Part shown: piece after piece, positions 1,467 to 26,971 of the stretch
Position numbering within the stretch: the first letter of the stretch is position 1
Layout of the letters: every line of letters begins with the position of its first letter
Source: Candidatus Heimdallarchaeota archaeon
GTDB taxonomy: Archaea; Asgardarchaeota; Heimdallarchaeia; Heimdallarchaeales; Heimdallarchaeaceae
NCBI GenBank assembly: GCA_019057815.1
Contig: JAHLWR010000028.1
Location: 1-45,655 of the forward strand
Direction of reading: 5' to 3'
Length of the DNA stretch: 45,655 nucleotides
The notes under the pieces: model-generated
Databases searched by the model: none
Told to the model about the DNA's origin: nothing
The model's input: only the letters and a program-made list of their open reading frames with translations
Position numbers and translations under genes: made by a program

Positions 1467-1468
1467 TA

Positions 1469-2839: not shown

Positions 2840-2916
2840 ATTTCACAAAAATTTAGTCTATTTCTATATGTAAAAAGTCTTAAAAAGCTGTTGCCAACTC
2901 AATATATGTAGAAAAA

Positions 2917-4179
2917 ATGTCATGGATAACCTCAATTTTTGGAAAAAAGAGTAAGGGTGTCAAAGCTGATGTACCTGAACTCTTTAATGCTCTTTACGAA
3001 TTTAATCATGATAAAATAATCGAAAATTCCCAAAGCGTGGAAAATAAGCTAGATGGATGCAAGATTTCAGATACGCTTTTTCTTGAAGGGCTAAAAACAG
3101 TTGATACTATCGGATTTCTTTTTGTTGGTAGTGAAGGCTTGGAAACTCTTTCAGTAATGCACAGTATAACCTCTAATATCGCTACTTCATTGCTTTTGGC
3201 AAATGACGAAATTCTGAGTAACAATACTCTTCGAGTCCCAACAATCGAGTTACCTTCTATTTCAAAACCAAAAGACACATTTTTCGAAGGAACAAGATGG
3301 TATGAAAATAATGAAGAAAGAATTAAAGACTATGTGCAAAAACTAATAAAAGACATTTCTCTAGTTTTTATTTTTACAGATAATACATGTTTTAATTTTG
3401 GTTTGTTAAAAAAAATAATGGCTTTTATTAAGTTTCAAAAAATCCAGCCTGTAATTGTACTAAAACTTCCTCCCAAGAATACAGAACTATCAAACGAAAT
3501 TTCAACTTTGATGTTTATCCATTCAATTTCTCAAGCAAAAGAAGAGGAGAGTTTCTCATATTTACTGCTAGATGAAGAGCTACTTAAAAAATCAAATAAA
3601 ACCATTTCTTCTGATGTGCTAACTAAAAAATTCCAACACCGTATTGCTACTGTGATTGTTGATCTCATTTCAGCAAGCCAAATGCCTTCAAAATTCTATC
3701 AAATAGATCAATCTAATTTCATCCGAATATTCGATAATTGTTTGGGACCATGCAAACTCTTATCTTATGAAATTTACGACGATAAACCTTCACTATCAGG
3801 GTTATTAAAAGACTTGAAATTGGCTGAAACCTTCAACACTAGGCAACAAGCAACTCGAGGTTTTTTAGTTATTCAACCAGGACCTAAGGGGTTGCAAACT
3901 AAAGAATATAGATTTATGAGAAACAGATTCTCTAAAATAGATGTTGTTTTTTCAATTCTTGAAGAAAGAAAAAGAGGGTCGTTAGTAAGAGGAATACTGA
4001 CATTTAATGAGACACCTAAAATACTCTTAGAGCGTTACACCACTTTTTCAGATATAATAATAGAAATAGTTAATGATGAAGATCAAGTTATTGGCTACGC
4101 CGACATGAGTGAGATAGAGAAACTATGGGATATTGAGCATTATTACATAAGACCACGTCCAAAACCAGAAAAGAAATAA
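2917..4179 (+). CDS. Degenerate tubulin/FtsZ-superfamily paralog, probably GTPase-inactive
   Basis: Colinear with 318..1466: FLFVGSEG, PVIVLKLPPKNTE, YLLLDEELL, YQIDQSNF, ATRGFLVI, VRGILT. The GGGTG motif is absent. Confidence 0.65.
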   Translation: MSWITSIFGKKSKGVKADVPELFNALYEFNHDKIIENSQSVENKLDGCKISDTLFLEGLKTVDTIGFLFVGSEGLETLSVMHSITSNIATSLLLANDEILSNNTLRVPTIELPSISKPKDTFFEGTRWYENNEERIKDYVQKLIKDISLVFIFTDNTCFNFGLLKKIMAFIKFQKIQPVIVLKLPPKNTELSNEISTLMFIHSISQAKEEESFSYLLLDEELLKKSNKTISSDVLTKKFQHRIATVIVDLISASQMPSKFYQIDQSNFIRIFDNCLGPCKLLSYEIYDDKPSLSGLLKDLKLAETFNTRQQATRGFLVIQPGPKGLQTKEYRFMRNRFSKIDVVFSILEERKRGSLVRGILTFNETPKILLERYTTFSDIIIEIVNDEDQVIGYADMSEIEKLWDIEHYYIRPRPKPEKK

Positions 4180-7434: not shown

Positions 7435-7792
7435 GATGCTTTCACATAATTAAAACACTCAAAGCAAGTTTTTACCTTTATTTCAGTTTCTTCTAACTGT
7501 TGATAGCAGAAGTCCCATTCCTTTAGGTAGGAGTAATACCTCAAGTTCTTCTTGTTGTTTTCTTCACAATTTTCAAGGCTGTAGATTCCAAAGGTATACT
7601 TCTATATTGCTTAACATGCTTTCAGTAAATAGTGTGTTGGTTGAGGATATAGTTTGTGATGAGTCTTCTTCATTATATCATCAGTCTATGGAAAAGGATT
7701 ATTACATATCAAGAATAGAAACACATTATATATACTTTAATACTAAAATATTGATACTGAATTATAAAAAAGTAATATAGAAGGTAAACTGC

Positions 7793-10700
7793 TTGTCTGA
7801 AATCGTTACCAAAAAAATGAGTGCTGCAGCATTCTTTAATGATAATAGAGCCATCGCAGGTTTTGGTAATTCTATGAGAGCTGTTTTCACAAGTATTAGA
7901 GAACTTGTTGAAAATGGGCTTGATGCTGCCGAAAGAAGAGGAATCAACCCTGTTATTGGTATAGATTTAAGAAGATTATCTCAAAAAGAAATTCAGGAAT
8001 TACTAGACGTAAAACAGTATAGATCACTGGAGAAGCATTTGGATTTTCTCCAATTAACATGTATAGATAATGGAATAGGTGTTCCTGGTCATTTAATAGC
8101 TGAATTATTTGGAAGAGTGCTCACAGGCACAAAATATGGTGTTATTCAGACACGTGGAAGATTTGGTTTAGGCGCTAAAATGTGCTTACTTTATTCAATG
8201 TCTTCTGTCGATTTACCTGCTAGAATACGTAGTAGACATTTTTTGGATAATATGACTCATGAACTTCATTTAATGATAAATTTAGAAAAAAATGAACCTA
8301 TTATAATGGAAGAACATGAATATCTTCCTGGGGACCCAAATTACCTTGAAGAACCAGGAACAGAAATATCTATCACCTTTACAGGAGCATGGAATCTCGC
8401 AAAGAATAGTGTGAAAGAATATTTCAAACAACTTGCAATAATAACTCCTTATGCAAGTTTTAATATTAATCTCCCAGGAGATAAAGATGGTGAAATTGAA
8501 TCTTTTGAATTAGCAAGTGTCGTAGACGATATGCCACCTCAACCTGAAATCGTGAAAATTCATCCATGGGGCTGTGATATAACTCAGTTCAAATCAGAGC
8601 TTTCTGTTACACAATCTAAAACCCTTAGAGAATTCCTTGCTAACCATTTCATGGGAGTCACAGAAGATATAAGTAAAGATTTCTTCCAATTATTAGGAAT
8701 AGATCCATCAAAAAAACCAAAAGAAATAACTTCAAGCGAAATAAGGAGAATTGTTCATGAGGGTTTTGTAAAAGCCTATCAAGAAGCAAAAGAAATCAAA
8801 CGTAAAAGAGATAGAAAATTTCAGTTTGAACCACCTAGAGGAAGTGCTCTTTCTCCTTTAGGTTCAGGTAGGCTCAGGAAGGGGCTTGAAAAAGAACTTC
8901 AGCCAAAATTCGTTGAAGCAATAACTAGACCACCTAAAGCTTATTCAGGTCATCCTTTCATAATAGAAGCAGCTATAGGTTATGGTGGGGGAGTGAAGGG
9001 ATTTACTCATTCAAGAGCTTCAAGTACAGATAATAAATTCATATATCGTTACGCAAATCGTATTCCTTTAATTTTTGGAGCGGGAAATGACGTTATTACT
9101 AAAGTTGTTTCTTCCATAAAATGGAGCGATTATGGGTTAACAAAACAATCAGATCCGCTTGCAATAGCTGTTTCACTTGTAAGTACAAAGATACCCTTTC
9201 CTGAAACAAGTAAAGAATATATTTCTAATGTTCCTGAGATAGAGGAAGATATCAGATTAGCTTTAATGCAACTTGGTAGAAGGTTGAAAACCTTTCTAAG
9301 TCGTGCTAAAAGAAGAAGAAGAGAACATGCTCGATTATCCCGTTTTGTTAAATCTGCACCTGTAGTAGTAGAAAACCTCACTCAGATTCTTCAAAGTAAA
9401 AAATCAATATTTGCCAATTTCCTACAAGGAAATGATAGAATTGCTTCAGCTCTAGCGCATGGTGCTCCTAAAAAAGCAAAATTATTCATGCCAATTGGTA
9501 AGAACCTTTTCAGTGTGAATGTTTGGTGTCCATCCTCAATTAGAAGAATACTAAATTCTAATAATGTTGTAACACTTGCTGATTTTTTCAATACACCAAC
9601 AGATCAATTAGCAACTATTTTAGAACTAACAGAAAATCAAGTTAATGAGATAAAGGAAAAGACAATTGATGAATTTGATAGAGAGAATATCAGTCCATTA
9701 TTAGACAATACACTTCTAATAAGCAGAAATGTAGAGAAAAGATTTTCAAAGAAGGCTGATAAGAGTTTTGTATCACTTAAAGATGCTCTTTACAGACGAT
9801 GGATACAGAATAGTTATCATTTTTTGGCCACAGAAATTGATAAACTCCGTTTTGTTTCTAATTTATTAGAGAAACTGTTCGAGTACAAAAAAGAACTTCT
9901 TATCACTCATTTTAAATCAAATAAAAGGAAACAAAGGGCAATTGGTACACCAACTCCAACAATAAAGGTAGAGTCTTTAACATCATATTCCAAATTAAAG
10001 GTTGAACATCTATTCCCTTCTTTTAAACAATTGAAAGCCATGTTAGGTGAGAGCTGTGATCCTGATCTGCTATATGAGGAATTTATTTTTCAAATAATCG
10101 AACCTACAGGAATAAATTACCAAGCTGCTATAACAAAAGTGTTAGTTGAAAATATGCAGCAGACGTTCAAGAAACTGATTGATAAATTCCCTAATTTTTC
10201 AAAGATTAAAATAACAAAAATGAAACCTGATTGGACAGATGGGTATACTAAAAATGCTTTTCACAGAAGAAAAATCTCTACTATAAGCGATTTTGTTAAA
10301 AAGGATTCTGAAGACCTAATTTTAATTAAAGAATTAGAAAGGGTCTTATTTTCGAGATTTTCGGATGTTCTCACCAAAAATACAGATTCAATAAAGCTTT
10401 CAAAGTTGCCAATTTCCGGTCTAAAAGAACTTCAAGGTGATGTTAAAGCAACCTTGAATGAACTTTCGAACAACAAGATTAATACCCTAGCAGAGTTAGT
10501 AAAACTTCAAAGTCATGAAATAGAAGAAGATAGTTATTACTTATTTGCTTCATTATTATTGAAAGAAGCAAAAACCATAATTCTAAACCATCTAAATGAA
10601 ACCCAGCAAAGTCACGATATATCTCACCTTAAGATTATTCCACACAGAATAGAGGTGGAGTTGAAGAAGAATCAGATTTTCTCTACATCTTCTTTCTTAG

Positions 10701-13700
10701 CTCACCCCTCTGTTAAATTGAAGAAAATGGGATTTAGGAAAAAGGATATTAATAATATTAAAAAGCGATTGGGCACTCAGATTCCTTCTTGGCTCAAAAA
10801 TAAGGATATTTTCAATAAACAAGGCATCACAACTTTAGAAGAATTGTTCTATAATACTGCTTCAGAGTTTGTTCTATCTAAAGATGAAAAGAAGCAATAT
10901 GAAGAATCTACAGTAATTCTTAGAAAACCTTTAATCTTTGGATTACCTGAACTTAGGAATTATTCTAATCTTCTTAACAAAATTGGTATTAATTGTGTTG
11001 GTAGATTCCTCTTATGGCCTGTATCGGAACTGATGGAGATCCTTAATCTGAATAAAGAAGAGATACAAGTATTAAAAGATAAGTTATCTCCTAAGACAAT
11101 TAAACAAAACGCTGATAAATATGGGAAAAGTTTGAGCTCTTTAGTAAGATTTTTCCCAAGACTTTTGAAATACTTTGAAACACACAATCTAACAATACAA
11201 GACTTGTTTTATATTTATATATCAGAAAAAGCAGTATCAAATTCTGGTTATTGGAAGAAAATTAATCAGTTAAATGAATTCTCTCAATCAGATATAACTG
11301 AACTAACAAACTTGATTGTATTAAAATCGAAGAAGAAGACAGATTTTCAAGAAGCACTACTCAAATTAAAAATTAGGAATATCAAGACTATAAAACAATT
11401 TCTTGATTCTCATTCTAATGTTATAGAAACAGAATTAACTGTTGCTTCTGAAAGAAAAATAGCTTTAGAAATTTTATATAAAATGCAAAAAGGTGAAATA
11501 GAAGGATCTAATGCTTTTCAAAAACAAATGATTCTAATATGTGAGTTTGATAATTTTCAACATTGTCTTAACTTACCAGTTTCTAGAATCTCTAATTTTA
11601 CACTTAACGATTATGAGATATTGAGAAACAATGGTATTATGGGCATTCATCAGTTGTTTGAATATACAGAGAAAGAATTATCAATAATATTAGGAAAATC
11701 AGCAAATCAAATGGAAGCACTTTTAGGAAGTTTTAGTTTCGAAAAAGAAAGACTTCCATTTTATGAAAAAGCTGAAAGCGGTCAATACAAATCCCTCATA
11801 TCCTTTGATTACGAGGATTCAGAAAGGTTTTCATCACAAGAGATTGATTCATTGATTCATTCAGGGTATGATTCTATTGATCAATTGTTCTATTTAACGC
11901 ATCACTCTACTTTTTCATCCCCTATTGTAAATTGGAAAGTAATGGATAGGTTCAAAAAATTATTACGGTCACCATTAACTTTAGTTAGTTGGGAGAAAAA
12001 AATTCAGAAAACAATTATTGACGAAGAGACGCAAGAGGAAAAGCAAATAATAGAAGTTCAGTACTCAAGTTTAACAACTCAACAGCTGAATACTCTCAGG
12101 AGTAATAATCTCACTCGAATTATAGATTTACTTCTCTGTAAAACAGAAAAACTACAAGAAATATTGAAGATTGAGGAAGAAGAAGCTAAAAAGCTTCAAA
12201 AGAATATTCGAATAATTGACAGTGGATTAGATCTTTCAGAACTAGGTATTTTCAAACCTCAAATAGAAAGAATGTTAGAAGAAAAAGACATTGTTACTAT
12301 AGAAGATCTTTATTTCTCAACCTCAAAAGCTAATTGGAATATTCCAAAGGTACCTTGGAATTTGATAGATTCAATAAAGAAAGTCCTGAATCTCCAATTA
12401 TCACATCTTTCTGATATGCTTGATTCTGAGTTAATTAAGCAATTGGGTGAAGCTAATGTCAAATCACTTCTTGGTTTTATGTTAAGTACTCCTGAAGAAA
12501 TCATGGAGAAAACTGGAATAGCTGATGAAAGATTTGAAAATATCAAAAGTGGGTTAGATCTAGGTTACATTATACAATATTTCTCACTTCCTGTTTACTT
12601 TGTTCCTAAATTGTCATTCTATCAAACAGAACTGCTTAGGCAAAACGATATCAAGACTGTCATAGATTTTGTGATTACTCGTCCAGGAAAAATAAGTAAA
12701 TTACTTAACATGACCGAGAAAAAGGTGAGAGTTTTAGCTTCTTCGCTTTCAGTTCAAATACTAGAAGAGGAATATGAAGAAAAAGGTGTTTTTGCATCTG
12801 AAACAAAATTATTTGATCGAAGTGAACAACGTCTGTTATCAAAAGATTCAATTCTTCAATTTGAAGGTTTACAGACAATTCAGGAGTTGTATTATTTAGT
12901 TTCAAGCGAATATTATCAGCTTAATCAAGAACTGTGGTCAAAAATATCAGCTCTGAAGAAAGTATTATCACTTCCATTGAGGATATTTACTGATATTTCA
13001 GACTATTCGCTATCACTATTAGAAAAAGTGAATATAAAAGATATTTTCCAAATCTTGTTTATTCCAGATTCTGACCTAGAAGATCCTGTGCTATACAGAA
13101 CAGTTTCAATATACTCATCATCGATTATAGATTTGAGAGCATTCCATTATTTCGCTATGTTGCCTGCTACAGTCTATAATTCGTCCTTTTTCAGTAAAAT
13201 AGTGAAAAACATCCAAGATATGACTCTTGTAGATATTATCACTAACGAAAAAGTTATCGAACACTTGGTTACAAAAAATAGACAATATATTAAAGAACAT
13301 TACAATATAACTTTCATAAGATCTCTTCTAGAACTGCCTCTTCGAATTAGTCCGCTGTACATTAAAATACCAGCTAATAGAAGAGAATATTACAAAGATA
13401 TGAAAGTAGGACAACTATTGGAACTTTCTTTAACAGAAAATCCTGCAATAGCTCCCGTTTTAACCTCCATCAAAGAAATAGATTCATTTAATGAAGTGAT
13501 ACAAAAACTCTCTTTACCTATAGCTACAATGGGATTACCAAGATCATTAGCTATCAAATTAAGCAAATCTTCTGTTTTTACACTTATTGATTTCTATTCT
13601 TCCCCAACAAAGCAGTTATCAGAGATGTCTGGTCACTCTCAAAAATTAATAAGAGAAATCAAAGAAAACTTAGCTTATTCTGATATTATTAAGTACCATT

Positions 13701-16700
13701 CTTCACACGCTCATCCTATAATCGCTTCTTCATTTATTTCAGAGGAGCAAATTGAAAAACTTAAGAAGCACGGAATTAGCGATTTAGAAACATTATATTA
13801 TTCAGCTGATGTGTTGGGGATTTCTAGCTTACTACCAGTAGAATATTATAGAAAATCTAAAGAGATATTATCTGGTTCAATAAGATTCTTAGGCTTTCTA
13901 GCTTTCGATGAAATTAAAAAGCTAGAATCCATGAATATTCATTCTATTATTGATTTAGCCCTTTTAAGTAAAAAAGAATTAAAAGAAATAACAGGAAATG
14001 AGATATACACTGAATTCCATATATTAGATCTAATAGCGTTTGATGAAATAGCTGAAAAGCGATTACAAACCGCTATTCCATTAATAAGTTGTTCTTCAAT
14101 AAAAGAAGATTATCTTGATAAACTAAATGAGATTGGAATACATTCCGTACAAGATTTTATATCTAGAATAGCTGAAATAATAGAAAGTCATCCATATCTT
14201 GTAGTTTCAGATGTTTTTAGAGAAATACAACTATATTTATCATCTGTCTCTTTTGTTGGATTACCAATTGAACAAACTAATATGTTGATTTATTTAGGCA
14301 TTGAAGATATTCTAACATATATCACAGAAGACCCATCAACAATTGCAATAATTCTGCATACTAATACGAGCAAAATAATTTCTTCTATTAAAAAGCTATC
14401 TCCACAGAAAATTGCCTCAAAAGTTAAACTAAATGGGGTTAAATTAATTGACTTCTTACCTTTGTCTAAAGGAAGGGTTGCAAATCTAGTAAAATCAGGG
14501 AAAGAACTAGTTCAAGATCTTTACAGCTTGTATTATCAAACATCTTCTATTCCTTCAGTTTCAGAAGGAAATATAGAGCATTTTATAGAACTCTGCAATG
14601 CTTCTGTATACAGAATTAAAGATTTGTCTTTAAATGAAAAAATAGAACTGAGAAAACATAGAATATATCGTGTAATTGACTTATTAAGCAGCCATGGTAA
14701 TGTTTTGAGAAAAATATTTGGGAAGATTCCAGAGTCAATTAAGAAGATTAAAACAGGGGAGTTTTCCTTATCAAACGGAATACCCCTCAACTTGAATGAA
14801 CCTATGTTAGAAATCTTAGCTGAAGTAGGTTTTGATTCTCCTAAAAAGACTGTAGAAGACTTATTCAGTTATGTGCCAGAATTACTCTATCAATACTCTG
14901 ATGCTGAACGAATCGAGAAAACTAAGAATGTTTCATTTCTAGAGCAGTTAGTTAGCTTCCTATGCCTGAATGTATTAACTATTCCTAATTTCGATCCGGA
15001 AGCAAAAATGGCTTTATGGCGCAATGGAATTAGACACATAATTGATGTGTTAGTAGTGAATGTAAACTCACTTACAAATATGCCAAAAAATATACAACAA
15101 CAGATTCGTCTTTATCAACGAGAATTCGATTTAAGTAGAAATATGTCAGCAACATTTTCTCCATTTATCAACCAAACAATTAATCTTCCAGATAATGTAA
15201 AAGAGAAATTCGTAGGCTATGGGATTAACAATATTCTCTTTCTAATGGATTTCATACCTCATCCAGTATTTAATTTCTCAAATGAAGAATTAGCTATACT
15301 CAGTAAAGTATCAGAGAACATTGTAAAACCGATTACATGGTTGTATGGGCAATTAAAGCTTAATATTAATAGTTTAATGGCATTCCTTTCACAGAAAGGA
15401 ACAGATATTCTTTCAGCTTTTCTCCTTCTATCACAACAAGATATACAAACAATTGATAATGCTTTTTCAGAGGATCTTCAAAATAAGCTCTATCATGCCA
15501 TCAATAAAGAAATATTAGATCTTAAGGTTCCAAATTGGGTAATAAGAATAGATCAAACTAATTTGTTTGCAAAACCCGAAATGGTAAAGAAACTTAAGAA
15601 AAAAGGTATAGAATTTCTGGATGAATTTCTTGCACTTGATAGCATTGCAGAAACTAGTAAAACTATAGATTTAGACAATATAAATTTGTTGAATTTATTA
15701 CATCAGATCCCAATATCTGTAATTAAGGAAATATCAACAGAGAATGTTGCAGTATTAACTAGTACGGGTATAGATACAACATATGATTTCCTTTATGTTC
15801 CTACACCTATTTTGTCAAAATTACTTAAAAAGAGTATTGAAAAAATTAATGAAATAAAATCCTCGTTCAAGCCTTCAGCTCTTATAAATAAAATGAAATT
15901 ACTTGGTCTAGATATAAATACGATACATACACTCCAAGAATCCACAAAGAAAATATTAGTTAACTATGGCTTTGCAACAATACTCCAGCTCAAAAATATA
16001 CAATTAGATAAGCTAAAAATTCCAAAAGAAGAAGTGAGGCAATTAACAGGTGCAATAACAGAATTGTATACTCCAATTACACTTCTTGGAAAGGTATTGA
16101 ATATTGAAAAAGAAATTATTACCAATCTTGTTTCTAGAGCAGTTTGTACATATGATGATTTGACTAAACTACCACTGCATAAATGGCCGAAAGAGTTTAA
16201 AGTGATACATACTAAACAGAAAGCTGATAGTTCCTATCTAAACAAACTACTGAAATCATCAAAGAAGAAAGGTATGTTAATCTCAGAATTGAATCTATCA
16301 AAACGACTATCTTTAGCGTTGAATGAAATTGGTATAATCACAATAGATCAATTATTGTTTGTTCCTAGCAAATGTATCGTTTCCAATACAAAAATTAACA
16401 AAGAAGAAATAGAGACTATAAGAGAAAAACTGGATTGCTACCTTAGTTATATACCAAATATATCGAGAGAAACAATTGAATTCTGTTTTCAAAAGGGGTA
16501 TACAAAGGTATCAGATGTTTTAATTTACTTTGATAAACTACCTAAAGATGTCAAAGAAGATATTCTAAAATCTGTATCACATATCAAAAACATTGAAGAA
16601 TTACAATTTATGGAACCATTATCTCCCACAGAACTCTACTTACAGAGGAAAGGTTTCAAATCATATAAATCGGTACTTTCTTCCCTTGAATTGAAGAAAA

Positions 16701-19700
16701 ACTATGAATTATCAAAGAGAATTGTTCCTATATTAACGGCGAATATAAGATTCCTGAATATCGATAAAAGTATCGAAGATAAAATAAAAAGAGCTCGAAT
16801 AACAACAATCTCGGATCTATTGATTCTCTCTCCAAAAACACTTTCTTCTAGAAGCAAAATTAAACAAGCTTTATTGAATAATATTATAGAATCCATAAAT
16901 ATAGACAAGGTGGAGTCTGAAATTGCTCATCAGAGTGGAAGGCATCTTGTAAAAGCTTTTTCCTTAACAAATAAAGATAAGAATACTTTAAAATCCTATG
17001 GAATTTATAATTTGTCAGATTTTAAAAATAATACTTCGTTCTCTTGGTTAATCCCAGAAAAACAAATTAAAGCAATAAGAGTAACAATTGCATCAAGTTT
17101 AGATACTCTATTACTGTTTTATACGAATATTGCAAAAATGTCACTTCTAGATATTGAAGATACATACTTTTCAAAAGGAATTTTCAACATTCAGGATTTA
17201 CTATCAATTAGTCAAGATAAAGAAGTTAAAGAAATTGAATCTTTCCTTACTAAGTTTGCAACAAACAGGAAGCAATTGATACAACAGTATTTGCCTGTTA
17301 ATGAGTTCCTTGCACCCCTTTCTATAAGAAACCTTTTCACTAAAGATACTCAAAAAATGAATATTAAAAACATCATAGACCTTAGTACATTCCTTTACTA
17401 TAATAAAGAACAATTAACTGATGAAGGAAAAGAAATTATAGCTGTTTTAAAATGCCCTATTTCGATTTTTGATGTTTTTAGCACTTCTGATATAGAAAAA
17501 TTAGCTGAAAAAGGCGTGAAAACTCTAGCTGATTTTCTACTGAAACCAAAGAATCTATTGATGACAATCATTCCACAAAAACTTGCTAAGCATGTTAGTA
17601 AGATTACAGAAATGATGAATTATGAAAATCTAAAGAAACAAAGAGATAAAGCTACACAAATTGCATCAATGAAACTTTTCGATCCTGAGATTAAGAAAAC
17701 TATTACCCAATTCTATACAACAATCAATGAGCTGGTATTTGCTGTTAAGAACAAAGTTTCTTTTGCTCCAAGACCAGTTGTAAGGAAAATAGAAAATTTG
17801 CTCAATACACCTATTCAGCAAGTTAAAATTCCTGGAATATCATTAAATTCCTGGTTAAAACTTATTGGAACCATAGATAACCTGGCTGAACTTTATGTCT
17901 TGTCAAATAAAGAACTTACGTCCTTACTTTCCATAACAAAGACCAAAGCAGCGAAAATTATAGTTGATATTGATGTAAATAGTATTGTCAAAGTGCCAAT
18001 AATACGTGAAAATCTCCTATTCGGTGCTTCTGATATTGCTATTTTAAAAGAAAAGCAAGTAACCAACTATTCACATCTTTACAAAAAAGACTTTTCAAAC
18101 TTTGCAATTTCCAGTATGCTACAAAGTAAAATTGAGATATTATTGAATTTAAAATTATCTGCAATTAATTCAAATATTAAGGAATCCTTTACACTTATTA
18201 CTCTTAATTTCCTTGGGCCTATAGTAGATACTTTAGATATTGAGAAAGAAAAGCAAACAACTTTTTCATCATACCATAAAATGCTTTTCAGTAAGGGTCA
18301 TTATTTGATCAACCTTATTCAAACCAAAATAAGCGAAGATGAAGAACTATTATCCAATTTTACGCTTGAATTTTTACTTCTAGCAGGAATCTACAAAAAG
18401 AAGATTTTCAATGATGCTCTTAATTCTCTTCAACCGCCTTCCAAGAGTAACTTGAATCGTTTCCTAAAATTGATTGAAAGATCTCCTATAATGCTTATCG
18501 GTGCAGGTTTAGATGCAATAGGAGCTGTTGCTGATATTCCCGTAACAACAATTAACGAACTATTATTAATGTCAGAAGTAGAGCTTAAGGCACTACCAAA
18601 TTATCGACTCTTCAATCAAAACTTGAAAAACTTGTCGTTATCCTTGCTGGAAGAGCAAAATAAGAGATTGATTAAGTTTCCAAAAGGAGTTTTACAGAAA
18701 GATGATAAAGCTGTTTTGGACAAAAACTTCATTTTCACAGTGGAAGATTCTTTGGTTTACAACAAGAAGTTTAAATCTAAGAAAACAGATTTGTGGAACA
18801 TTACAGAACGAATCAAAAACATAATGATGGTAAGCTTATATTCGTTAACGCCTATTGTTCAATCCAGAAATCTTCTTGATTTATTAACTTCTTATAAGAT
18901 TGATTCTCTTTACGAATCACTTGTTGCGAGTCAACAAGAGCCTCTTGACGAAAAACAAGGTATCATTGAAATGCTTAATCAATTAGAATTCAGCAAAATT
19001 ACCAAATATATGAAAGAAGAAAAACAAAGATTTAGTAATTTCATTGCTGATGATGAGCTAATGAACGCTTTATTAGAACAAGGAATTTCCTCTCTTGGTT
19101 CATTAATATCTATGACACAGTGTGTTTTAACTGATGAACACCCATTAGAATTAGAGCATGTTCTCCCGGCTTTACGAGCTCCTTTGTCATTAATTGTTGG
19201 AAATAAAATTATTTTAAATAAATTGCAAAAAATAGGTTTGGTGCAAGTTGCTGATTTAGTATTACCTCCAAATATTAAGCTGAATCTTGAAGGAACACTG
19301 AGTGAAAAAGAGATTGATATAATTCAAGAAATACGTAATAAAATGAATTTGCAGACTATTAACAGCTGTCTCAAAACTATCTATCCTTTATTAAATACAA
19401 ATTTCATTGATAGTGATATAAAGCACGCATTAATGAAAGCAGGATACAGTTCTATCAAACACCTTGAAGTTTCTGAAATTACTATCATCAACCAAACAAA
19501 ATTAAGAGAAAGTCATATCATCAAAATTAAGAAATTACTAAACACACCTATATATATTCTGTCAGAGTTATTGAGAGAAGATGTTCAGAGCGTTCGTAAA
19601 TTGCATAAGAAGGATAAATTCAACCTGTTTCAAGTGATGGAAACCGACATTAAAGAGCTTTCTACTCTGACCAAACTTCCTTCCAGACAGATAAAGGTGT

Positions 19701-20356
19701 ATCTTTCTTCGCTTTCAGCTGAATCAATACGACAGTCTCAAAAGGATCAAGTTTCTGTTAGTTCTATTAATCCACATTTAACTAAAGAAGATGTTAAAAC
19801 GCTAATAAAAGCAAATATTACCTCTTTACAACAATTGATTTTGCCTACAGCGTCAATTAAGAGGAAATCTGCTTTTAAACGACAGAATGTCGAAAAATTG
19901 AGACACCATCTAGAAAAACCAATTGAAGAAATTGAGTTACATAGTGATGATGTTAGTCAATTAAAACAACTCGGTGTGTTATCATTTGGTGATTTTGTTC
20001 TTTATCCTACTTCACTTCTCGAAGGAAAAATAAATCAGAACTATTTAGCAATAAAGCGACTTAAAGCAAGAATGCCACTAAAAGGAAAAAAACCTACACC
20101 TAAGAAGAAGACTACACCTAAGAAGAAGACTACACCCAAGAAGAAGACTACACCCAAGAAGACCACATCTACTACTAAAAAAGTGTTAAAACCTCAAAAA
20201 AGTTCTCTGAGTAAATCAATAAAACCTAAGAGAACCCGTCAAGTAACATTACTCGAAATGGAACCTGTCATTAAAAGTGGAACACAAAAAAATCAATCAA
20301 TAACGAGTTCACCGAAAACTAAAACTTCATCATCAAAGAAAGGAGGATCACAATAA
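7793..20356 (+). CDS. top6B: DNA topoisomerase VI subunit B with giant C-terminal HhH-like repeat array (4187 aa)
   Basis: GHKL motifs ELVENGLDA, DNGIG and TRGRFGLG; transducer motifs YANRIPL and STKIPFPETSKE in the first ~530 aa. The frame continues open for ~3,650 aa of repeats. TTG start. Confidence 0.93.
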   Translation: MSEIVTKKMSAAAFFNDNRAIAGFGNSMRAVFTSIRELVENGLDAAERRGINPVIGIDLRRLSQKEIQELLDVKQYRSLEKHLDFLQLTCIDNGIGVPGHLIAELFGRVLTGTKYGVIQTRGRFGLGAKMCLLYSMSSVDLPARIRSRHFLDNMTHELHLMINLEKNEPIIMEEHEYLPGDPNYLEEPGTEISITFTGAWNLAKNSVKEYFKQLAIITPYASFNINLPGDKDGEIESFELASVVDDMPPQPEIVKIHPWGCDITQFKSELSVTQSKTLREFLANHFMGVTEDISKDFFQLLGIDPSKKPKEITSSEIRRIVHEGFVKAYQEAKEIKRKRDRKFQFEPPRGSALSPLGSGRLRKGLEKELQPKFVEAITRPPKAYSGHPFIIEAAIGYGGGVKGFTHSRASSTDNKFIYRYANRIPLIFGAGNDVITKVVSSIKWSDYGLTKQSDPLAIAVSLVSTKIPFPETSKEYISNVPEIEEDIRLALMQLGRRLKTFLSRAKRRRREHARLSRFVKSAPVVVENLTQILQSKKSIFANFLQGNDRIASALAHGAPKKAKLFMPIGKNLFSVNVWCPSSIRRILNSNNVVTLADFFNTPTDQLATILELTENQVNEIKEKTIDEFDRENISPLLDNTLLISRNVEKRFSKKADKSFVSLKDALYRRWIQNSYHFLATEIDKLRFVSNLLEKLFEYKKELLITHFKSNKRKQRAIGTPTPTIKVESLTSYSKLKVEHLFPSFKQLKAMLGESCDPDLLYEEFIFQIIEPTGINYQAAITKVLVENMQQTFKKLIDKFPNFSKIKITKMKPDWTDGYTKNAFHRRKISTISDFVKKDSEDLILIKELERVLFSRFSDVLTKNTDSIKLSKLPISGLKELQGDVKATLNELSNNKINTLAELVKLQSHEIEEDSYYLFASLLLKEAKTIILNHLNETQQSHDISHLKIIPHRIEVELKKNQIFSTSSFLAHPSVKLKKMGFRKKDINNIKKRLGTQIPSWLKNKDIFNKQGITTLEELFYNTASEFVLSKDEKKQYEESTVILRKPLIFGLPELRNYSNLLNKIGINCVGRFLLWPVSELMEILNLNKEEIQVLKDKLSPKTIKQNADKYGKSLSSLVRFFPRLLKYFETHNLTIQDLFYIYISEKAVSNSGYWKKINQLNEFSQSDITELTNLIVLKSKKKTDFQEALLKLKIRNIKTIKQFLDSHSNVIETELTVASERKIALEILYKMQKGEIEGSNAFQKQMILICEFDNFQHCLNLPVSRISNFTLNDYEILRNNGIMGIHQLFEYTEKELSIILGKSANQMEALLGSFSFEKERLPFYEKAESGQYKSLISFDYEDSERFSSQEIDSLIHSGYDSIDQLFYLTHHSTFSSPIVNWKVMDRFKKLLRSPLTLVSWEKKIQKTIIDEETQEEKQIIEVQYSSLTTQQLNTLRSNNLTRIIDLLLCKTEKLQEILKIEEEEAKKLQKNIRIIDSGLDLSELGIFKPQIERMLEEKDIVTIEDLYFSTSKANWNIPKVPWNLIDSIKKVLNLQLSHLSDMLDSELIKQLGEANVKSLLGFMLSTPEEIMEKTGIADERFENIKSGLDLGYIIQYFSLPVYFVPKLSFYQTELLRQNDIKTVIDFVITRPGKISKLLNMTEKKVRVLASSLSVQILEEEYEEKGVFASETKLFDRSEQRLLSKDSILQFEGLQTIQELYYLVSSEYYQLNQELWSKISALKKVLSLPLRIFTDISDYSLSLLEKVNIKDIFQILFIPDSDLEDPVLYRTVSIYSSSIIDLRAFHYFAMLPATVYNSSFFSKIVKNIQDMTLVDIITNEKVIEHLVTKNRQYIKEHYNITFIRSLLELPLRISPLYIKIPANRREYYKDMKVGQLLELSLTENPAIAPVLTSIKEIDSFNEVIQKLSLPIATMGLPRSLAIKLSKSSVFTLIDFYSSPTKQLSEMSGHSQKLIREIKENLAYSDIIKYHSSHAHPIIASSFISEEQIEKLKKHGISDLETLYYSADVLGISSLLPVEYYRKSKEILSGSIRFLGFLAFDEIKKLESMNIHSIIDLALLSKKELKEITGNEIYTEFHILDLIAFDEIAEKRLQTAIPLISCSSIKEDYLDKLNEIGIHSVQDFISRIAEIIESHPYLVVSDVFREIQLYLSSVSFVGLPIEQTNMLIYLGIEDILTYITEDPSTIAIILHTNTSKIISSIKKLSPQKIASKVKLNGVKLIDFLPLSKGRVANLVKSGKELVQDLYSLYYQTSSIPSVSEGNIEHFIELCNASVYRIKDLSLNEKIELRKHRIYRVIDLLSSHGNVLRKIFGKIPESIKKIKTGEFSLSNGIPLNLNEPMLEILAEVGFDSPKKTVEDLFSYVPELLYQYSDAERIEKTKNVSFLEQLVSFLCLNVLTIPNFDPEAKMALWRNGIRHIIDVLVVNVNSLTNMPKNIQQQIRLYQREFDLSRNMSATFSPFINQTINLPDNVKEKFVGYGINNILFLMDFIPHPVFNFSNEELAILSKVSENIVKPITWLYGQLKLNINSLMAFLSQKGTDILSAFLLLSQQDIQTIDNAFSEDLQNKLYHAINKEILDLKVPNWVIRIDQTNLFAKPEMVKKLKKKGIEFLDEFLALDSIAETSKTIDLDNINLLNLLHQIPISVIKEISTENVAVLTSTGIDTTYDFLYVPTPILSKLLKKSIEKINEIKSSFKPSALINKMKLLGLDINTIHTLQESTKKILVNYGFATILQLKNIQLDKLKIPKEEVRQLTGAITELYTPITLLGKVLNIEKEIITNLVSRAVCTYDDLTKLPLHKWPKEFKVIHTKQKADSSYLNKLLKSSKKKGMLISELNLSKRLSLALNEIGIITIDQLLFVPSKCIVSNTKINKEEIETIREKLDCYLSYIPNISRETIEFCFQKGYTKVSDVLIYFDKLPKDVKEDILKSVSHIKNIEELQFMEPLSPTELYLQRKGFKSYKSVLSSLELKKNYELSKRIVPILTANIRFLNIDKSIEDKIKRARITTISDLLILSPKTLSSRSKIKQALLNNIIESINIDKVESEIAHQSGRHLVKAFSLTNKDKNTLKSYGIYNLSDFKNNTSFSWLIPEKQIKAIRVTIASSLDTLLLFYTNIAKMSLLDIEDTYFSKGIFNIQDLLSISQDKEVKEIESFLTKFATNRKQLIQQYLPVNEFLAPLSIRNLFTKDTQKMNIKNIIDLSTFLYYNKEQLTDEGKEIIAVLKCPISIFDVFSTSDIEKLAEKGVKTLADFLLKPKNLLMTIIPQKLAKHVSKITEMMNYENLKKQRDKATQIASMKLFDPEIKKTITQFYTTINELVFAVKNKVSFAPRPVVRKIENLLNTPIQQVKIPGISLNSWLKLIGTIDNLAELYVLSNKELTSLLSITKTKAAKIIVDIDVNSIVKVPIIRENLLFGASDIAILKEKQVTNYSHLYKKDFSNFAISSMLQSKIEILLNLKLSAINSNIKESFTLITLNFLGPIVDTLDIEKEKQTTFSSYHKMLFSKGHYLINLIQTKISEDEELLSNFTLEFLLLAGIYKKKIFNDALNSLQPPSKSNLNRFLKLIERSPIMLIGAGLDAIGAVADIPVTTINELLLMSEVELKALPNYRLFNQNLKNLSLSLLEEQNKRLIKFPKGVLQKDDKAVLDKNFIFTVEDSLVYNKKFKSKKTDLWNITERIKNIMMVSLYSLTPIVQSRNLLDLLTSYKIDSLYESLVASQQEPLDEKQGIIEMLNQLEFSKITKYMKEEKQRFSNFIADDELMNALLEQGISSLGSLISMTQCVLTDEHPLELEHVLPALRAPLSLIVGNKIILNKLQKIGLVQVADLVLPPNIKLNLEGTLSEKEIDIIQEIRNKMNLQTINSCLKTIYPLLNTNFIDSDIKHALMKAGYSSIKHLEVSEITIINQTKLRESHIIKIKKLLNTPIYILSELLREDVQSVRKLHKKDKFNLFQVMETDIKELSTLTKLPSRQIKVYLSSLSAESIRQSQKDQVSVSSINPHLTKEDVKTLIKANITSLQQLILPTASIKRKSAFKRQNVEKLRHHLEKPIEEIELHSDDVSQLKQLGVLSFGDFVLYPTSLLEGKINQNYLAIKRLKARMPLKGKKPTPKKKTTPKKKTTPKKKTTPKKTTSTTKKVLKPQKSSLSKSIKPKRTRQVTLLEMEPVIKSGTQKNQSITSSPKTKTSSSKKGGSQ
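20094..20163 (+). repeat. 18-bp coding tandem repeat (~4 copies) encoding TPKKKT
   Basis: Unit CTACACC(T/C)AAGAAGAAGA repeated in tandem. Confidence 0.9.
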
Positions 20357-21762
20357 TGGTAAACTATAAGTTTCAGATTAGAAATTCAACAATATTACCA
20401 GCAACAGAAAAGTTTGTAGCCTTTGAGAAAGAAACACCAATAAAGGAGATTCAGAGTTGGGTCAGTGATACATTTGATATGTCTAAAGCTTCTTTTCTTT
20501 TATTTTTAAGAAGTGGTAAAAAATGGTATAAACTAGAAGTACCAAAACTTCTGTCTGACTACAGTCTTCAAAAAGAAGGTATGAGAATTGATGTAAGAAA
20601 GACTGTAAATTTAAGTCAAGTAAAAGCGCTAAAAAAAGAACTTGAGATACTTAGCGAATATTCTATGCCTTTTGGAGTAATAAACGTTGAAACAACTTCT
20701 TCTGAAGAAACTAGCAACCGTTTGGTAGAAAGTGCCTTAGACTTTCTTAATCAAGCAATGTATAACCCTCTAGAAGCATCCTTCTATATACCCTCTCGAG
20801 GGGGTTCCAACATTGGTTTTGATGAGGAGCAAGAATTAATTTTAATAGGAAAGCAAATGATTGAAAGGCAATTTAGAAATCTTGCTTCCGTTAGTTCTGT
20901 AGAGCAACTATCTATTTTGATGCGATTGATATATGATATTTTAGCCAGAGACATCCATAGTACTAAACGTGATATATTCTATATGAATGTGAATGCATTC
21001 GAAAAACAATCTATTTCTGACACATTAATTGAAGATTTAGGAGCAATGTTACAAGTTACTCGATCTTCTTTAAATGTTAGTGCCTCTTCAAAAGGAATAG
21101 TAATTGGAAGGTTGAGTTTTAAAGAAAAGGGAGATTTTATTGATTGTAAAGCGATTGGTTCTGGAAAATCTATTTCTCCAAATATTGATGACATTGAAAA
21201 TATGGAAAGTGATGCTGAATTTTGTATAGTTGTCGAAAAAGACGCTATTTTCAACCGCCTTGCAGAAGATCACTTTTATGATTATGTTCCAAGTATTTTA
21301 GTGACTGCAAAAGGACAACCTGATATGGCGACAAGACAGTTTTTAAAGAAGATTAATGATGAATTGAAACTTCCTATTATAGCCATAATGGACGCAGATC
21401 CTTATGGTTTCGAAATTATGAGAGTTTACTCTGTAGGAAGTAAAGCTTTGAGTTTTGAATCCTCTCATCTAGCTGTACCCAATATTAAATGGCTTGGTCT
21501 TCTACCTACTGATTTGGAACTTGATAGTGGTTTTGATATTCCCAGACATGCTTTAATCCGAATGACTTCAAAGGATATTCATAGGTCAAAACTAATGTTA
21601 GAAGAAGAATTCGTTAAACGAAAACCAAAATGGAGAAACCAATTGCAAACCTTACTTAATGGTGGATATAAGGCAGAAATTCAAGCACTTAATGCTAGAG
21701 ATCCCCAATTTATCACTACCCACTATTTACCATCGAAACTTGAATCTGGGGACCTTATATAA
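20356..21762 (+). CDS. top6A: DNA topoisomerase VI subunit A (Spo11 family) with N-terminal ubiquitin-like extension
   Basis: Catalytic TKRDIFY, Toprim VVEKDA and DADPYG, C-terminal KAEIQAL. TAATG stop/start overlap with top6B. Confidence 0.95.
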   Translation: MVNYKFQIRNSTILPATEKFVAFEKETPIKEIQSWVSDTFDMSKASFLLFLRSGKKWYKLEVPKLLSDYSLQKEGMRIDVRKTVNLSQVKALKKELEILSEYSMPFGVINVETTSSEETSNRLVESALDFLNQAMYNPLEASFYIPSRGGSNIGFDEEQELILIGKQMIERQFRNLASVSSVEQLSILMRLIYDILARDIHSTKRDIFYMNVNAFEKQSISDTLIEDLGAMLQVTRSSLNVSASSKGIVIGRLSFKEKGDFIDCKAIGSGKSISPNIDDIENMESDAEFCIVVEKDAIFNRLAEDHFYDYVPSILVTAKGQPDMATRQFLKKINDELKLPIIAIMDADPYGFEIMRVYSVGSKALSFESSHLAVPNIKWLGLLPTDLELDSGFDIPRHALIRMTSKDIHRSKLMLEEEFVKRKPKWRNQLQTLLNGGYKAEIQALNARDPQFITTHYLPSKLESGDLI

Positions 21763-24043: not shown

Positions 24044-24628
24044 ATGAGTTATATTAACACCTTGTTCTTGAAAATCATTTTAATTGGTGAAACTGGTGTT
24101 GGGAAAACAAGTTTAAGACGATCGTATTTAGGCGTCGGTTTTGAATCTGAACATCTTACAACAATTGGTGCAGATTTTGCATCGTTAGTTAAAAAAGTGA
24201 AAGATATTAAAATTACTTTCCAAATTTGGGATTTAGCTGGTCAAGACTTCTTTCAAGCTGTTAGAAAAGTCTATTATAAGGGGTCTTTAGGTGCTTTGCT
24301 GATTTTTGATGTTACTGACTTAACTACTTTAAAAGCGCTGGACAGTTGGGTAGATGAATTGGAGGAAAGTTCTGGTCGTGGAATAATTCCATTTTTTATT
24401 CTAGGGAACAAAGTAGATCTAATAAGTGAAAAAAAACTTGCTACAATTAAAATAAAAGCTCAAAAACATGTTGATAAATGGAAAAAAAAATACAAGAGTA
24501 GTGGGTTTGAAATCAAACTTTTTTTCACATCAGCTAAACTGGGAGAGAATGTTCAAGAAGGATTTGAAAGTTTAGGAGAAGAGATAATAGATTTTCTAGC
24601 TTTCAGGAAGAAACAGAGGGAAAATTAA
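24044..24628 (+). CDS. Rab-like small GTPase
   Basis: G1 GETGVGKTS, G2 TTIG, G3 WDLAGQ, G4 NKVD, G5 SAK. Confidence 0.93.
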   Translation: MSYINTLFLKIILIGETGVGKTSLRRSYLGVGFESEHLTTIGADFASLVKKVKDIKITFQIWDLAGQDFFQAVRKVYYKGSLGALLIFDVTDLTTLKALDSWVDELEESSGRGIIPFFILGNKVDLISEKKLATIKIKAQKHVDKWKKKYKSSGFEIKLFFTSAKLGENVQEGFESLGEEIIDFLAFRKKQREN

Positions 24629-26971
24629 ATGGACATTGAAGAAATCATTATATTGCTGGAACAGGATGATACTAGTAAAATTGATTTGAATGAAATAAAG
24701 GTTCTTCATAGATTAATTAAATTGATACCCCATAAAAACAAAATAGTAAGAAATAATGCTAAGCGTCTTCTTTTTAAAGGAAGTCTTGTTCCAACAGAAA
24801 AGATCATAGAGGAATATGTTAGTGATTCCAATTCTTTCTTAGAGGAATTGATAATAAGCAAATTATGTTTCTTCATTCCTATATTAACAGATTTTCTGAT
24901 AAAGAAAGATAGCTTCAAACAACTACATGTCTTATTATCAAAGCAAAGTGTTCAGACTATACAGAAAGCGGTTGATAAAGCTTCAATAACAGCTCCTATA
25001 CTCTCTGCTATCGCTGAGATAGCGATTAGAACATGTCACGTATCCTACTGTAGTAATACTGATTCTCTATTGACCTATCAAATTATTATTGAAAATACTA
25101 AGAAACTTAGAAAAACACTTTTATTCAGATTAAACCAAGAAGACCCTATTTTCACAGAACTAGTTTTACGAACCGTTTATCAGTTTCAAGATCTAACCAA
25201 ATTAATTGTTAACCAAATAAGAAATATCATAACTAACTCTTCAGTAGATGAGCATTTACGTTATGCTGCAATTGCTCTAATGAATCTACAAGACCCCAAA
25301 AACTCTGACATTTTAATAAAACGACTAAAAACAAAAGAAGATTCAGAGGAAGTACAACTAGCAATAATCGAAGCTTTAGGTAATCTAGGTAATCTTTCTT
25401 CAACTGAAATTTTGCTAGAACAATTCAATAAAAGTGAAAGAATCGCATACTATGCTTCTCATTCATTAGCTCTCCTTGGTGATGGTGTTTATCCAGCGCT
25501 TATCAAAGCTCTAAATGACGATAAATTCGTTATCTATGTAACAGAGACTATGAAAAGACTAGGTGAAAAAAGTTATGATTGGCTAATAGACGCTTTAGCA
25601 AAAGGAAAAAAGAATGTAAAAAGAAATGCTGCGCAATGTTTAACCCTTGTCATAAGTCAGGAACATGGTTATGAGGGTGGAATCAGGATTCTCACAAATC
25701 AGCTTGCTGGAAAAAATAGAGAAGTCATTCAATCTGTAGCTCAATCCTTAGTAAATCTTGGAACACCTTCAATCCGAGTTCTGATTGAAGAATTATCTGA
25801 AAATGATATGCGTTTAAGGAAGAATGCTATAGAAATCTTGCAGAACTTTGGGTTTCAAAATATTGAACTTGCGTTAGATGGGATTTTAGAGGTAGATTCT
25901 TACAAAGCAGTAGAGTTAGGAGTAATACTTTATATCTATTATCCTAGTGAGGATGTTAGAAACTTGGGATTATCTTTTGCAATCTCGAAAAATAAATTAA
26001 GGAAAAAGAATGATGATCTTTTAAATATCATTTTCAAGGCAACAGCAGAGATAGAGCCTGAAATAAGAGAAAGGGCCTGTTTAATGCTATCTTATTGTGG
26101 ATCAAATTCTATAAAATTTCTGTCTCATCTCTTATTGGATATTAATTTGCAAGTGAGGAGAAAAGCCGTCGAATCTCTTAGAAAGGTTAAAAGTAAGAAA
26201 GCCTTGATAGTTTTAATAAAAGCTGCAAAAGAATCTGATGCTCTTATATCAGAAACAGCAACTAGAGCACTAGGAGAGTTACAGGATCCTGGGGTTATTG
26301 ATGTAATTCTCAATAACATGAAACGTTCTAATATCGTTGTTAGGGATGCTGCTTCCTATGCTGCAGCAAAAATAGGTATGACTGTTGTTCCAAAGCTATC
26401 TCAACAGCTATCGTCAGCAAATCGTGATCTTGTAGAAGGATCCGTTAGTGCTTTAAGTCGAATTGGAGTAAATGCTATTAAGCCTTTAACTAAAACGCTA
26501 GAACAAAAAAGTGAAAAATGGTTTAAGAATTTTCAAAAAGTAATTACTGCGATGGGTCAAAGTTCAGTGATTGTTCTTCATGAAATATATAAAAAAGCAA
26601 GAAAAAAAATAGCTATGACGAGAATCTTACTTCTCTTATCACTATTGGATGACACAAAACACATGAAAAACTACATTGATATTGTCTTAGACGAAGATGC
26701 GAAAATTGGAATTAGAATGATAAATAATGTTGGATCAAATGGTGTAATCTCCTTGATTAACAATCTAGAACAATACTCAAAATCTGATATAAACCTCTTT
26801 ATAGAAAAAAGTAGAGGGATGAGTCGAGAACTTGTTCGAGAAATAATGGTGGAAATATCAAAAAATCCAAAATTAAAAAGTTTTAATAAAAAAATAGACA
26901 AAATCCATGGAAAAAGAGTTAAAAAGCTATTCTCAAACGTTAAAGACTATAACAAATTATTAGATTCTTAA
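24629..26971 (+). CDS. HEAT-repeat (PBS-lyase-type) alpha-solenoid protein
   Basis: Repeats such as VQLAIIEALGNLG, VRRKAVESLRKV, SETATRALGELQD and VRDAASYAAAKIG. Confidence 0.85.
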   Translation: MDIEEIIILLEQDDTSKIDLNEIKVLHRLIKLIPHKNKIVRNNAKRLLFKGSLVPTEKIIEEYVSDSNSFLEELIISKLCFFIPILTDFLIKKDSFKQLHVLLSKQSVQTIQKAVDKASITAPILSAIAEIAIRTCHVSYCSNTDSLLTYQIIIENTKKLRKTLLFRLNQEDPIFTELVLRTVYQFQDLTKLIVNQIRNIITNSSVDEHLRYAAIALMNLQDPKNSDILIKRLKTKEDSEEVQLAIIEALGNLGNLSSTEILLEQFNKSERIAYYASHSLALLGDGVYPALIKALNDDKFVIYVTETMKRLGEKSYDWLIDALAKGKKNVKRNAAQCLTLVISQEHGYEGGIRILTNQLAGKNREVIQSVAQSLVNLGTPSIRVLIEELSENDMRLRKNAIEILQNFGFQNIELALDGILEVDSYKAVELGVILYIYYPSEDVRNLGLSFAISKNKLRKKNDDLLNIIFKATAEIEPEIRERACLMLSYCGSNSIKFLSHLLLDINLQVRRKAVESLRKVKSKKALIVLIKAAKESDALISETATRALGELQDPGVIDVILNNMKRSNIVVRDAASYAAAKIGMTVVPKLSQQLSSANRDLVEGSVSALSRIGVNAIKPLTKTLEQKSEKWFKNFQKVITAMGQSSVIVLHEIYKKARKKIAMTRILLLLSLLDDTKHMKNYIDIVLDEDAKIGIRMINNVGSNGVISLINNLEQYSKSDINLFIEKSRGMSRELVREIMVEISKNPKLKSFNKKIDKIHGKRVKKLFSNVKDYNKLLDS

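Follow-up and report, generated by a model that had tools for sequence, protein, structure and literature searches.

A giant topoisomerase VI subunit B with a long arm of tandem helix-hairpin-helix-like modules in Heimdall-group Asgard archaea

The top6B/top6A locus

We examined a 45,655-nucleotide stretch of DNA from a Candidatus Heimdallarchaeota archaeon (assembly GCA_019057815.1, contig JAHLWR010000028.1, positions 1 to 45,655; referred to below as the window), which carries an unusually long gene for subunit B of DNA topoisomerase VI (Topo VI; subunits Top6A and Top6B). The top6B frame occupies positions 7793-20356 of the forward strand as a single uninterrupted run of 4187 codons, and no in-frame stop interrupts these 12.5 kb of DNA at ~31% GC. 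A preliminary description of this DNA had proposed a one-frame Top6B fusion of 4187 amino acids (aa), and the open frame agrees with it. Position 9390, which was given there as the start, corresponds to aa ~533, the end of the Top6B core; no stop follows at aa ~540, the frame running open to aa 4187. Translation could begin at either of two codons, since the N termini of orthologs read MSE..TKKMSAAAFF, and a TATA-like tract lies ahead of the start at ~7729-7745. At the other end of the gene, the top6B stop codon and the top6A ATG share one nucleotide (TAATG), and GGAGGA is found 10 nucleotides upstream of that ATG. We therefore consider top6B and top6A to be a tightly coupled operon. The features of the locus are as follows.

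7793 or 7817, forward strand: start codon of top6B, TTG at 7793 or ATG at 7817, eight codons further on (DNA sequence)
7793..9412, forward strand: Top6B catalytic core, aa 1-540, comprising N-strap, GHKL ATPase, H2TH, transducer and Top6A-contacting C-terminal helix (Pfam, NCBIfam, alignment to 2zbk_B)
9503..20077, forward strand: arm, aa ~571-4095, with ~50-55 tandem modules of ~55-65 aa, mostly of five helices and with a helix-hairpin-helix (HhH)/SAM-like fold (repeat hidden Markov model [HMM] and shuffles, profile self-alignment, AlphaFold2 [AF2] models, structure matches, Pfam)
11540..14272, forward strand: best-conserved and best-modeled stretch of the arm, aa 1250-2160, 14 modules (ortholog identity, AF2, ratio of nonsynonymous to synonymous substitution [dN/dS] of 0.14)
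20078..20353, forward strand: basic low-complexity tail, aa 4096-4187, rich in Lys, Thr, Ser and Pro, pI 11.3
20094-20162, forward strand: four TPKKKT repeats, an 18-bp tandem repeat (DNA and protein sequence of the tail)
20237..20263, forward strand: motif R-Q-V-T-L-L-E-M-E, aa 4149-4157, resembling a PCNA-interacting protein (PIP) box (tail alignment)
20356..21762, forward strand: top6A, 468 aa, complete by Pfam with TP6A_N and Toprim domains (Pfam, DNA sequence)

Judged by its sequence, the Top6B subunit is catalytically intact. Residues 7-540 gave full-length alignments to the Top6B proteins of S. shibatae (2zbk_B, E 1e-86) and M. mazei (2q2e_B, E 1e-60). The Pfam domain Topo-VIb_trans was found at aa 348-512 (E 8e-55), and the two NCBIfam Top6B models scored above their cut-offs (equivalog NF003218, 452 bits against 274; TIGR01052, 394.3 bits against 380.7). 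The Pfam HATPase_c match was weak by itself; the N, G1 and G2 boxes of the GHKL/Bergerat fold are kept relative to 2zbk_B (ELvENgLDA, iDNGIG and QTRGrFGLGaK). The 2zbk_B alignment reaches aa 537, and a Lys is retained in "ETSKE" opposite "SAGKE," which we take to be the region of the switch lysine described by Corbett and Berger. These data fit the expectation of a normal Top6B of ~530 aa with its GHKL and transducer domains intact. The giant is the single Top6B copy in the source genome, which is 95% complete.

Canonical Top6B (530 aa in S. shibatae, 621 aa in M. mazei) resembles the giant over residues 7-540 and in its operon with Top6A. However, the giant has ~3,650 extra residues after the transducer helix, making it eight times the usual size. 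The C-terminal domain (CTD) of M. mazei Top6B is one ~100-aa Ig-like domain, and its fold differs from that of the arm. To our knowledge, known Topo VI accessory domains measure ~100 aa at most.

As a separate observation on the partner subunit, the first Pfam domain of Top6A (TP6A_N) begins at aa 183, leaving an N-terminal extension of >100 aa compared to canonical Top6A.

Repeat structure and fold of the arm

The first module of the arm begins at aa 571. Comparison of the giant Top6B with itself by BLASTP returned no internal matches, which implies that the repeats are old and that they are visible to profiles only. A repeat HMM made from 17 seeds picked by pattern gave scores of 23-50 bits to 22 modules, and the highest score among 20 shuffled arms was 5.3 bits; the 22 scores are partly circular since those modules trained the HMM. 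Two independent checks are free of this circularity. The Pfam profile RAD51D_N, which was built from unrelated proteins, matched three stretches of the arm above its cut-off (E 2e-13). Profile-profile self-alignment of the family alignment, a check of the HHrepID/HHpred type that had been suggested for this protein, was repetitive over the whole arm, with off-diagonal alignments of up to 2923 columns (E down to 2e-47) that covered residues 574-4100 at offsets of 56-60, 236, 374, 544 and more residues. Thus, the whole arm is one repeat family with a unit of ~60 residues. Single-module seeds in hhalign gave mostly low probabilities, and the whole-arm self-alignment was decisive.

With the orthologs pooled, 33 module positions recurred in at least four orthologs and scored above every shuffle. 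Iterating the repeat HMM over all orthologs made it drift to a 38-aa core and lose members, and we used the third round together with the shuffles. The module count is method dependent, 33 by sequence and ~50-55 by structure, with the latter extrapolated to the whole arm from 14 modules in 911 modeled residues. The module consensus reads P-[ILV]-x-x-[IL]-x-x-L-[ST]-x-[ED]...L-x-x-x-[GN]-I-x-[TS]-[IVL]-x-[DQ]-[FL]...L...K-x-x-L. It matches the "LP.....L......L...GI.TI.D(L/F)" pattern of the preliminary description, and the three repeat examples quoted there were recovered in place at aa 1260, 1908 and 2828.

Two further proposals held only in part. Alternation between two module types is present at aa ~1260-1590, where second-hairpin modules alternate with "NW" modules bearing an invariant Trp, but the arm at large lacks a ~110-aa period; its shortest offset in the self-alignment is 56-60 aa. 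A likeness of the modules to the N-terminal domain of the RadA encoded in the window could not be detected by sequence, the arm HMM giving no match to that domain, but the fold class is shared. The arm HMM found no module in the other open reading frames of the source genome. At the DNA level, the sole repeat in the gene is the 18-bp unit of the tail, present in 3.8 copies.

To describe the fold, we used an AF2 model of residues 1250-2160 (m6eccfb52f013; 16 orthologs), which had a mean predicted local distance difference test (pLDDT) score of 82.8 and a predicted template modeling (pTM) score of 0.71. Its secondary-structure (DSSP) pattern resolves into 14 modules, most of which have five helices, and one long beta-hairpin, and the modules in the AF2 models are roughly 65 aa long. 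We aligned the arm models with 48,161 PDB representatives using VIA-align rather than Foldseek. The top match of this model was the RAD51D N-terminal domain (9q25_D), with a Z of 8.6 and a root mean square deviation of 1.5 A over 54 aa at residues 1534-1588. The RAD51C N-terminal domain (8gj9_B, Z 7.3) and RAD51D in BCDX2 (8faz_C, Z 7.2) came next, followed at Z 4.7-6.9 by Y-family polymerase thumbs, SAM domains, NusA AR, the RNA polymerase alpha CTD (alpha-CTD) and Hef/XPF HhH domains. Z values in this range are, by the alignment tool's own caution, middling for helical proteins. The structural matches agree with one another, with the Pfam profile result and with PF26169 (HHH_XRCC3_RpoA), for which the orthologs carry precomputed matches. 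Taken together, these data bear out the earlier assignment of HhH/alpha-CTD-like modules for the middle of the arm.

A second AF2 model covered residues 3420-3810, the stretch least visible to profiles. It is all-helical and also confident (pLDDT 83.4, pTM 0.82), and the AlphaFold part of the proposed check gave confident models at both sites. Other results limit the HhH assignment. The best matches of the second model were weaker (alpha-CTD 1z3e_B, Z 5.4; RAD51C N-terminal domain, Z 4.8), and its model residues 20-125 and 313-390 had no such matches. Foldseek searches of the PDB with both arm models gave nothing at E <= 0.001, and an ESM Atlas shape search with the arm model gave nothing above a template modeling score of 0.31. 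A profile search of PDB sequences with the arm yielded only sub-threshold matches to the RNA polymerase alpha-CTD and RAD51D (E 0.02-0.9). The distal third thus belongs to the same repeat family by profile, while its model suggests a degenerate fold with weak HhH likeness. The pTM values of 0.71 and 0.82 suggest that the modules pack into a fixed superstructure and are not beads on a string.

The best single-module matches are the RAD51/RadA N-terminal domain and the RNA polymerase alpha-CTD (RAD51D_N, HHH_XRCC3_RpoA and RNA_pol_A_CTD). In those proteins they are single domains on an ATPase or a polymerase, whereas in the giant the module is repeated ~50 times and the DNA-contact residues of the alpha-CTD are mostly lost. 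The sole well-studied precedent we know of for a topoisomerase with a tandem HhH array is Topo V of Methanopyrus kandleri, a type IC enzyme which, like the giant, carries a long array of HhH-type domains. Topo V has 12 tandem (HhH)2 domains, or 24 canonical HhH motifs, in ~600 aa, whereas the giant has ~50 degenerate modules in 3,500 aa. The catalytic class of Topo V is unrelated, and the arm of the giant sits on the ATPase subunit. No sequence relation between Topo V and the arm was detectable, and the Foldseek match to 8df9_A was nonsignificant (E 2.6).

The predicted long beta-hairpin (WEKKIQKTIIDEETQEEKQIIEVQYSS) lies between two helical modules at aa ~1398-1426 (window positions 11984-12070). 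At this insert, W1400 (W151 of alignment A1) is invariant in 16 orthologs.

Conservation and distribution of the arm

The arm is real and under purifying selection. Fifteen homologs of 4161-4210 aa shared 41-43% identity with the giant at 100% arm coverage. Their alignment is colinear with few indels, and identity falls from 81% in the core to 45-63% across residues 1300-2200 and 25-35% across residues 2500-3800. The architecture recurs in >30 independent assemblies, including the 2017 metagenome-assembled genome AB_125, and the locus is also present in Ca. Heimdallarchaeum aukensis and Ca. H. endolithica, both of which have closed chromosomes (CP084166 and CP084167). Two giant frames of the source genome's own family also sit in single-contig genomes. 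Compared with a relative 94% identical in protein, dN/dS was 0.13 for the core, 0.21 for the arm (2630 arm codons) and 0.14 for aa 1250-2160, each from one pairwise Nei-Gojobori estimate with low dS.

We surveyed 201 genomes across the Asgard phylum, of which 198 encoded Top6B. The open frames of Top6B had the following lengths.

Family f1 (that of the source genome): 4140-4305 aa
Family f3: 4244 aa
Family f2: ~3470-3590 aa
Family f4: at least 2820 aa
Family f5: 2312-2342 aa
Family f19: 2286-2297 aa, with a second small copy 6 kb away
Family f6: 1108-1123 aa, with a second copy of ~505 aa
Most other families: 400-760 aa

Among these genomes, the arm was found only in Heimdall-group families, at graded sizes of ~1,100, 2,300, 3,500 and 4,200 aa. 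The survey of Top6B lengths that had been called for thus confined the long frames to a few Heimdall-group families. The arms of f19 and f6 hold the same modules, with 16 and 7 HMM matches. A form of 2318 aa lines up colinearly with the giant over residues 8-2321, and therefore the distal ~1,870 residues were either added later or lost elsewhere. This colinearity, along with modules that are orthologous one by one across genera, is in keeping with the old expansion first proposed from the lack of DNA-level repeats.

We also searched 1.84 billion representative proteins, in which 34 clusters matched residues 1250-2160. Nearly all of those matches longer than ~2,200 aa carry the Top6B core, and the three without it look truncated. 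One such "arm-only" candidate, P0017, was rejected: its start lies 92 nucleotides inside the edge of a contig and top6A comes next, as expected of a contig-edge fragment. Since the checked coreless protein was such a fragment, there is no sign of a naturally split core/arm form. The exact giant protein was absent from a collection of 15 billion sequences.

In one f19 genome (L041, G041:C6:513000-531000), a 2293-aa Top6B with 16 HhH modules is accompanied by a 564-aa Top6B ~6 kb away on the same strand.

Gyrase is encoded in the source genome and in families f1-f5, all of which have arms of at least 2,300 aa. According to Villain et al. 2022 (PMC9348778), Asgard archaea that encode gyrase bear C-terminal additions on Top6B. 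The distribution in f1-f5 fits the proposal in that paper that C-terminal extensions of Top6B go together with gyrase. Other families weigh against a link between arm and gyrase. Family f19 carries an arm on its 2293-aa Top6B, and gyrase was found in none of its 5 genomes; it was not found either in f6, which also has an arm. Conversely, f13, f26 and f21 are gyrase positive with a Top6B that has no HhH modules. Gyrase as a strict rule for the arm was therefore ruled out.

The Top6B frames of these last three families, which lie outside the Heimdall group, are themselves divergent (~990-1,100 aa at loci L039, L043, L044 and L042). They are extended at the N terminus, interrupted by an insert that separates the GHKL and transducer regions, and followed by a ~200-aa C-terminal part ending in ...GKK.WKLK, which together account for the extra length. 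In several Asgard genomes (G015, G068, G165, G183, G160, G184, G142 and others), GyrA frames are 1,266-1,738 aa long. Their Pfam match breaks at model positions ~93/92 or begins only at positions 29-37, consistent with an intein or a large insertion in GyrA.

We found no description of this architecture in the searchable papers on Topo VI phylogeny, TopoVI/TopoVIBL evolution, gyrase evolution, Asgard replisomes and Heimdallarchaeum genomes, in line with its having been put forward as undescribed. In its available text, the paper by Villain et al. 2022 (PMC9348778) refers to "a globular domain" and contains no mention of a multi-thousand-residue HhH array. Topoisomerase is unmentioned in the text and 25 supplementary files of Wu et al. 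2022 (PMC8813620), a set apart from that paper's extended-data figure of Asgard proteins >3,000 aa. Since the orthologs are labeled in databases plainly as "DNA topoisomerase VI subunit B," the architecture is easily overlooked.

Possible roles of the arm and tail

Topo VI is the main archaeal decatenase and the ancestor of the meiotic Spo11 complex. The reading we favor, to which we give about an even chance, is that a single intact Top6B has gained a ~3,500-aa arm for tethering and for contact with DNA or chromatin, as well as a PCNA-docking tail, and works as a dedicated decatenase at replication forks. With Top6A from the overlapping downstream gene, it would form an A2B2 enzyme of ~1.07 MDa with two arms. 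The core would carry out ordinary ATP-dependent strand passage, the arm would serve as a long, fairly rigid tether and contact surface, and the basic disordered tail would hook the enzyme onto the sliding clamp. Topo VI would thereby be held at or behind the forks, while the gyrase of the genome would set supercoiling. Decatenation by the giant Topo VI would, under this model, be coupled to replication. The model builds on the proposal of Villain et al. 2022 that links C-terminal additions of Top6B to gyrase.

The arm may bind DNA by analogy with its fold class, which is known to do so in Topo V, RAD51, polymerases and XPF/Hef. Further points in favor are the Topo V precedent, the attachment of the arm to a DNA enzyme and the basic stretches beside the core and at the tail; aa 401-600, around the core-arm junction, has a net charge of +18. 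Several features of the modules weigh against it. Across 272 aligned modules, the hairpin glycine was Gly in 52% for hairpin 1 and 27% for hairpin 2, and no second glycine was conserved. Because the G-h-G hairpin glycines are mostly lost, we regard the modules as HhH-like in fold and not as canonical HhH motifs. The position that we take to correspond to alpha-CTD R265 is acidic in 48% of the modules. Overall the arm is near neutral (net +42 over 3565 residues), with acidic stretches at aa 1200-1800 and 2000-2200. Finally, SAM domains, which are protein binders, matched the arm models at Z 5-6, about as well as DNA binders did.

The tail offers a candidate link to replication. Within tails that are otherwise unalignable, we found a conserved [KR]-Q-x-T-L-[LMFV]-[DE]-[MVIL] motif, in which Q, T and L are invariant in 14 sequences. 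Compared with the PIP consensus Q-x-x-[LIM]-x-x-[FYW]-[FYW], Q4150 and L4153 are invariant, and the aromatic positions are occupied by E-M (D-M/V/I in orthologs). More distant lineages have C termini reading QKSLNAF, QKSLNEY or QTSLDEY, and the QKSLNAF and QKSLNEY ends are nearer to the canonical PIP form. In a complex prediction of the tail with PCNA from the source genome (268 aa, contig C12), the score was 0.76, against 0.42 for the best of three controls, a mark that 58 of 80 solved complexes attained, as did 2 of 110 mismatched pairs. Contact agreement between runs was at least 58%, and the partner pLDDT was at least 46. The predicted contacts join residues 4145-4156 to PCNA residues 41, 44-48, 231-232 and 248-255, placing the motif in the PIP site. 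This model suggests that the tail motif docks on PCNA. Two points count against such docking: the motif is without both aromatic residues of a canonical PIP box, and the score could stem from resemblance to solved PIP-PCNA complexes, which are numerous for this textbook pair.

The loss of the hairpin glycines, the near-neutral charge and the acidic stretches would also suit an arm that works as a protein-protein scaffold. Here, the degenerate HhH/SAM-like modules would recruit or space other factors, or would let Topo VI self-assemble into a chromosome-scaffold lattice, with only the core and the basic tail touching DNA. SAM domains, the RNA polymerase alpha-CTD and RAD51-paralog N-terminal domains, all known protein-interaction modules, are among the best structural matches. 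The interdomain packing suggested by the pTM values fits a fixed superstructure of this kind, and the modules are conserved individually, as specific partners would predict. However, no partner can be named, the same fold also binds DNA in the proteins listed above, the arm is fused to a DNA enzyme with a strongly basic tail, and the genome encodes only one arm-bearing protein. We consider this alternative less likely than the favored reading.

A third explanation, close to that of the preliminary description, places the arm in catalysis. As in the GyrA CTD or the HhH domains of Topo V, wrapping or holding of the G- or T-segment by the arm would make the enzyme processive, sensitive to chirality or biased in supercoiling. 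The arm is joined straight after the transducer helix at the DNA gate, its first module (aa 571) lies in the basic stretch at aa 401-600, and the tandem (HhH)2 domains of Topo V are known to contact DNA. At 3,500 aa, however, it far exceeds any known wrapping element, its length varies fourfold among related families with near-identical cores, and its DNA-binding signatures are weak. We consider this explanation unlikely.

We would place at similarly long odds the more ambitious idea that this ~1-MDa complex, as the only type IIB topoisomerase, is a chromosome-organizing scaffold clamped to the replisome, with two 3,500-aa arms grown stepwise from ~1,100 to 2,300, 3,500 and 4,200 aa as the group radiated. 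If true, it would parallel in prokaryotes the scaffold role that has been proposed for topoisomerase II of eukaryotes. Lastly, that the long frame is an artifact, a misjoin or a decayed remnant read through by chance might be supposed from an assembly in 48 contigs, but the colinear architecture in >30 independent assemblies and two closed chromosomes, the stop-free 12.5 kb at 31% GC, the arm dN/dS of 0.21 and the confident AF2 models effectively refute it.

Heimdall-group Asgard archaea are the closest known relatives of eukaryotes. A conserved and selected eightfold enlargement that is confined, in our sample, to the archaea nearest eukaryotes implies that these cells have a hitherto unrecognized layer of chromosome handling or of replication coupling. 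The length variants of 1,100, 2,300, 3,500 and 4,200 aa amount to a natural, ready-made deletion series. Arm fragments that fold confidently in silico, as well as the putative PCNA-docking motif as a single peptide, would be suitable experimental targets.

Other giant frames occur in the source genome outside the window. Contigs C39, C16, C7 and C38 carry frames of 6010, 5979, 5237 and 4635 aa. A further frame, 2079-3225 aa long, accompanies each of them no more than ~10 kb away on its contig, and none of the four giants contains the Top6B arm module. These tandem giant genes recall the Heimdallarchaeum "aloposons" of Wu et al. 2022 (PMC8813620). Within the window, downstream of the topoisomerase operon, positions 24044-26971 encode a Ras-family small GTPase (194 aa) followed directly by a 780-aa HEAT/Armadillo-repeat protein, a pair that is typical of Asgard archaea and eukaryote-like.

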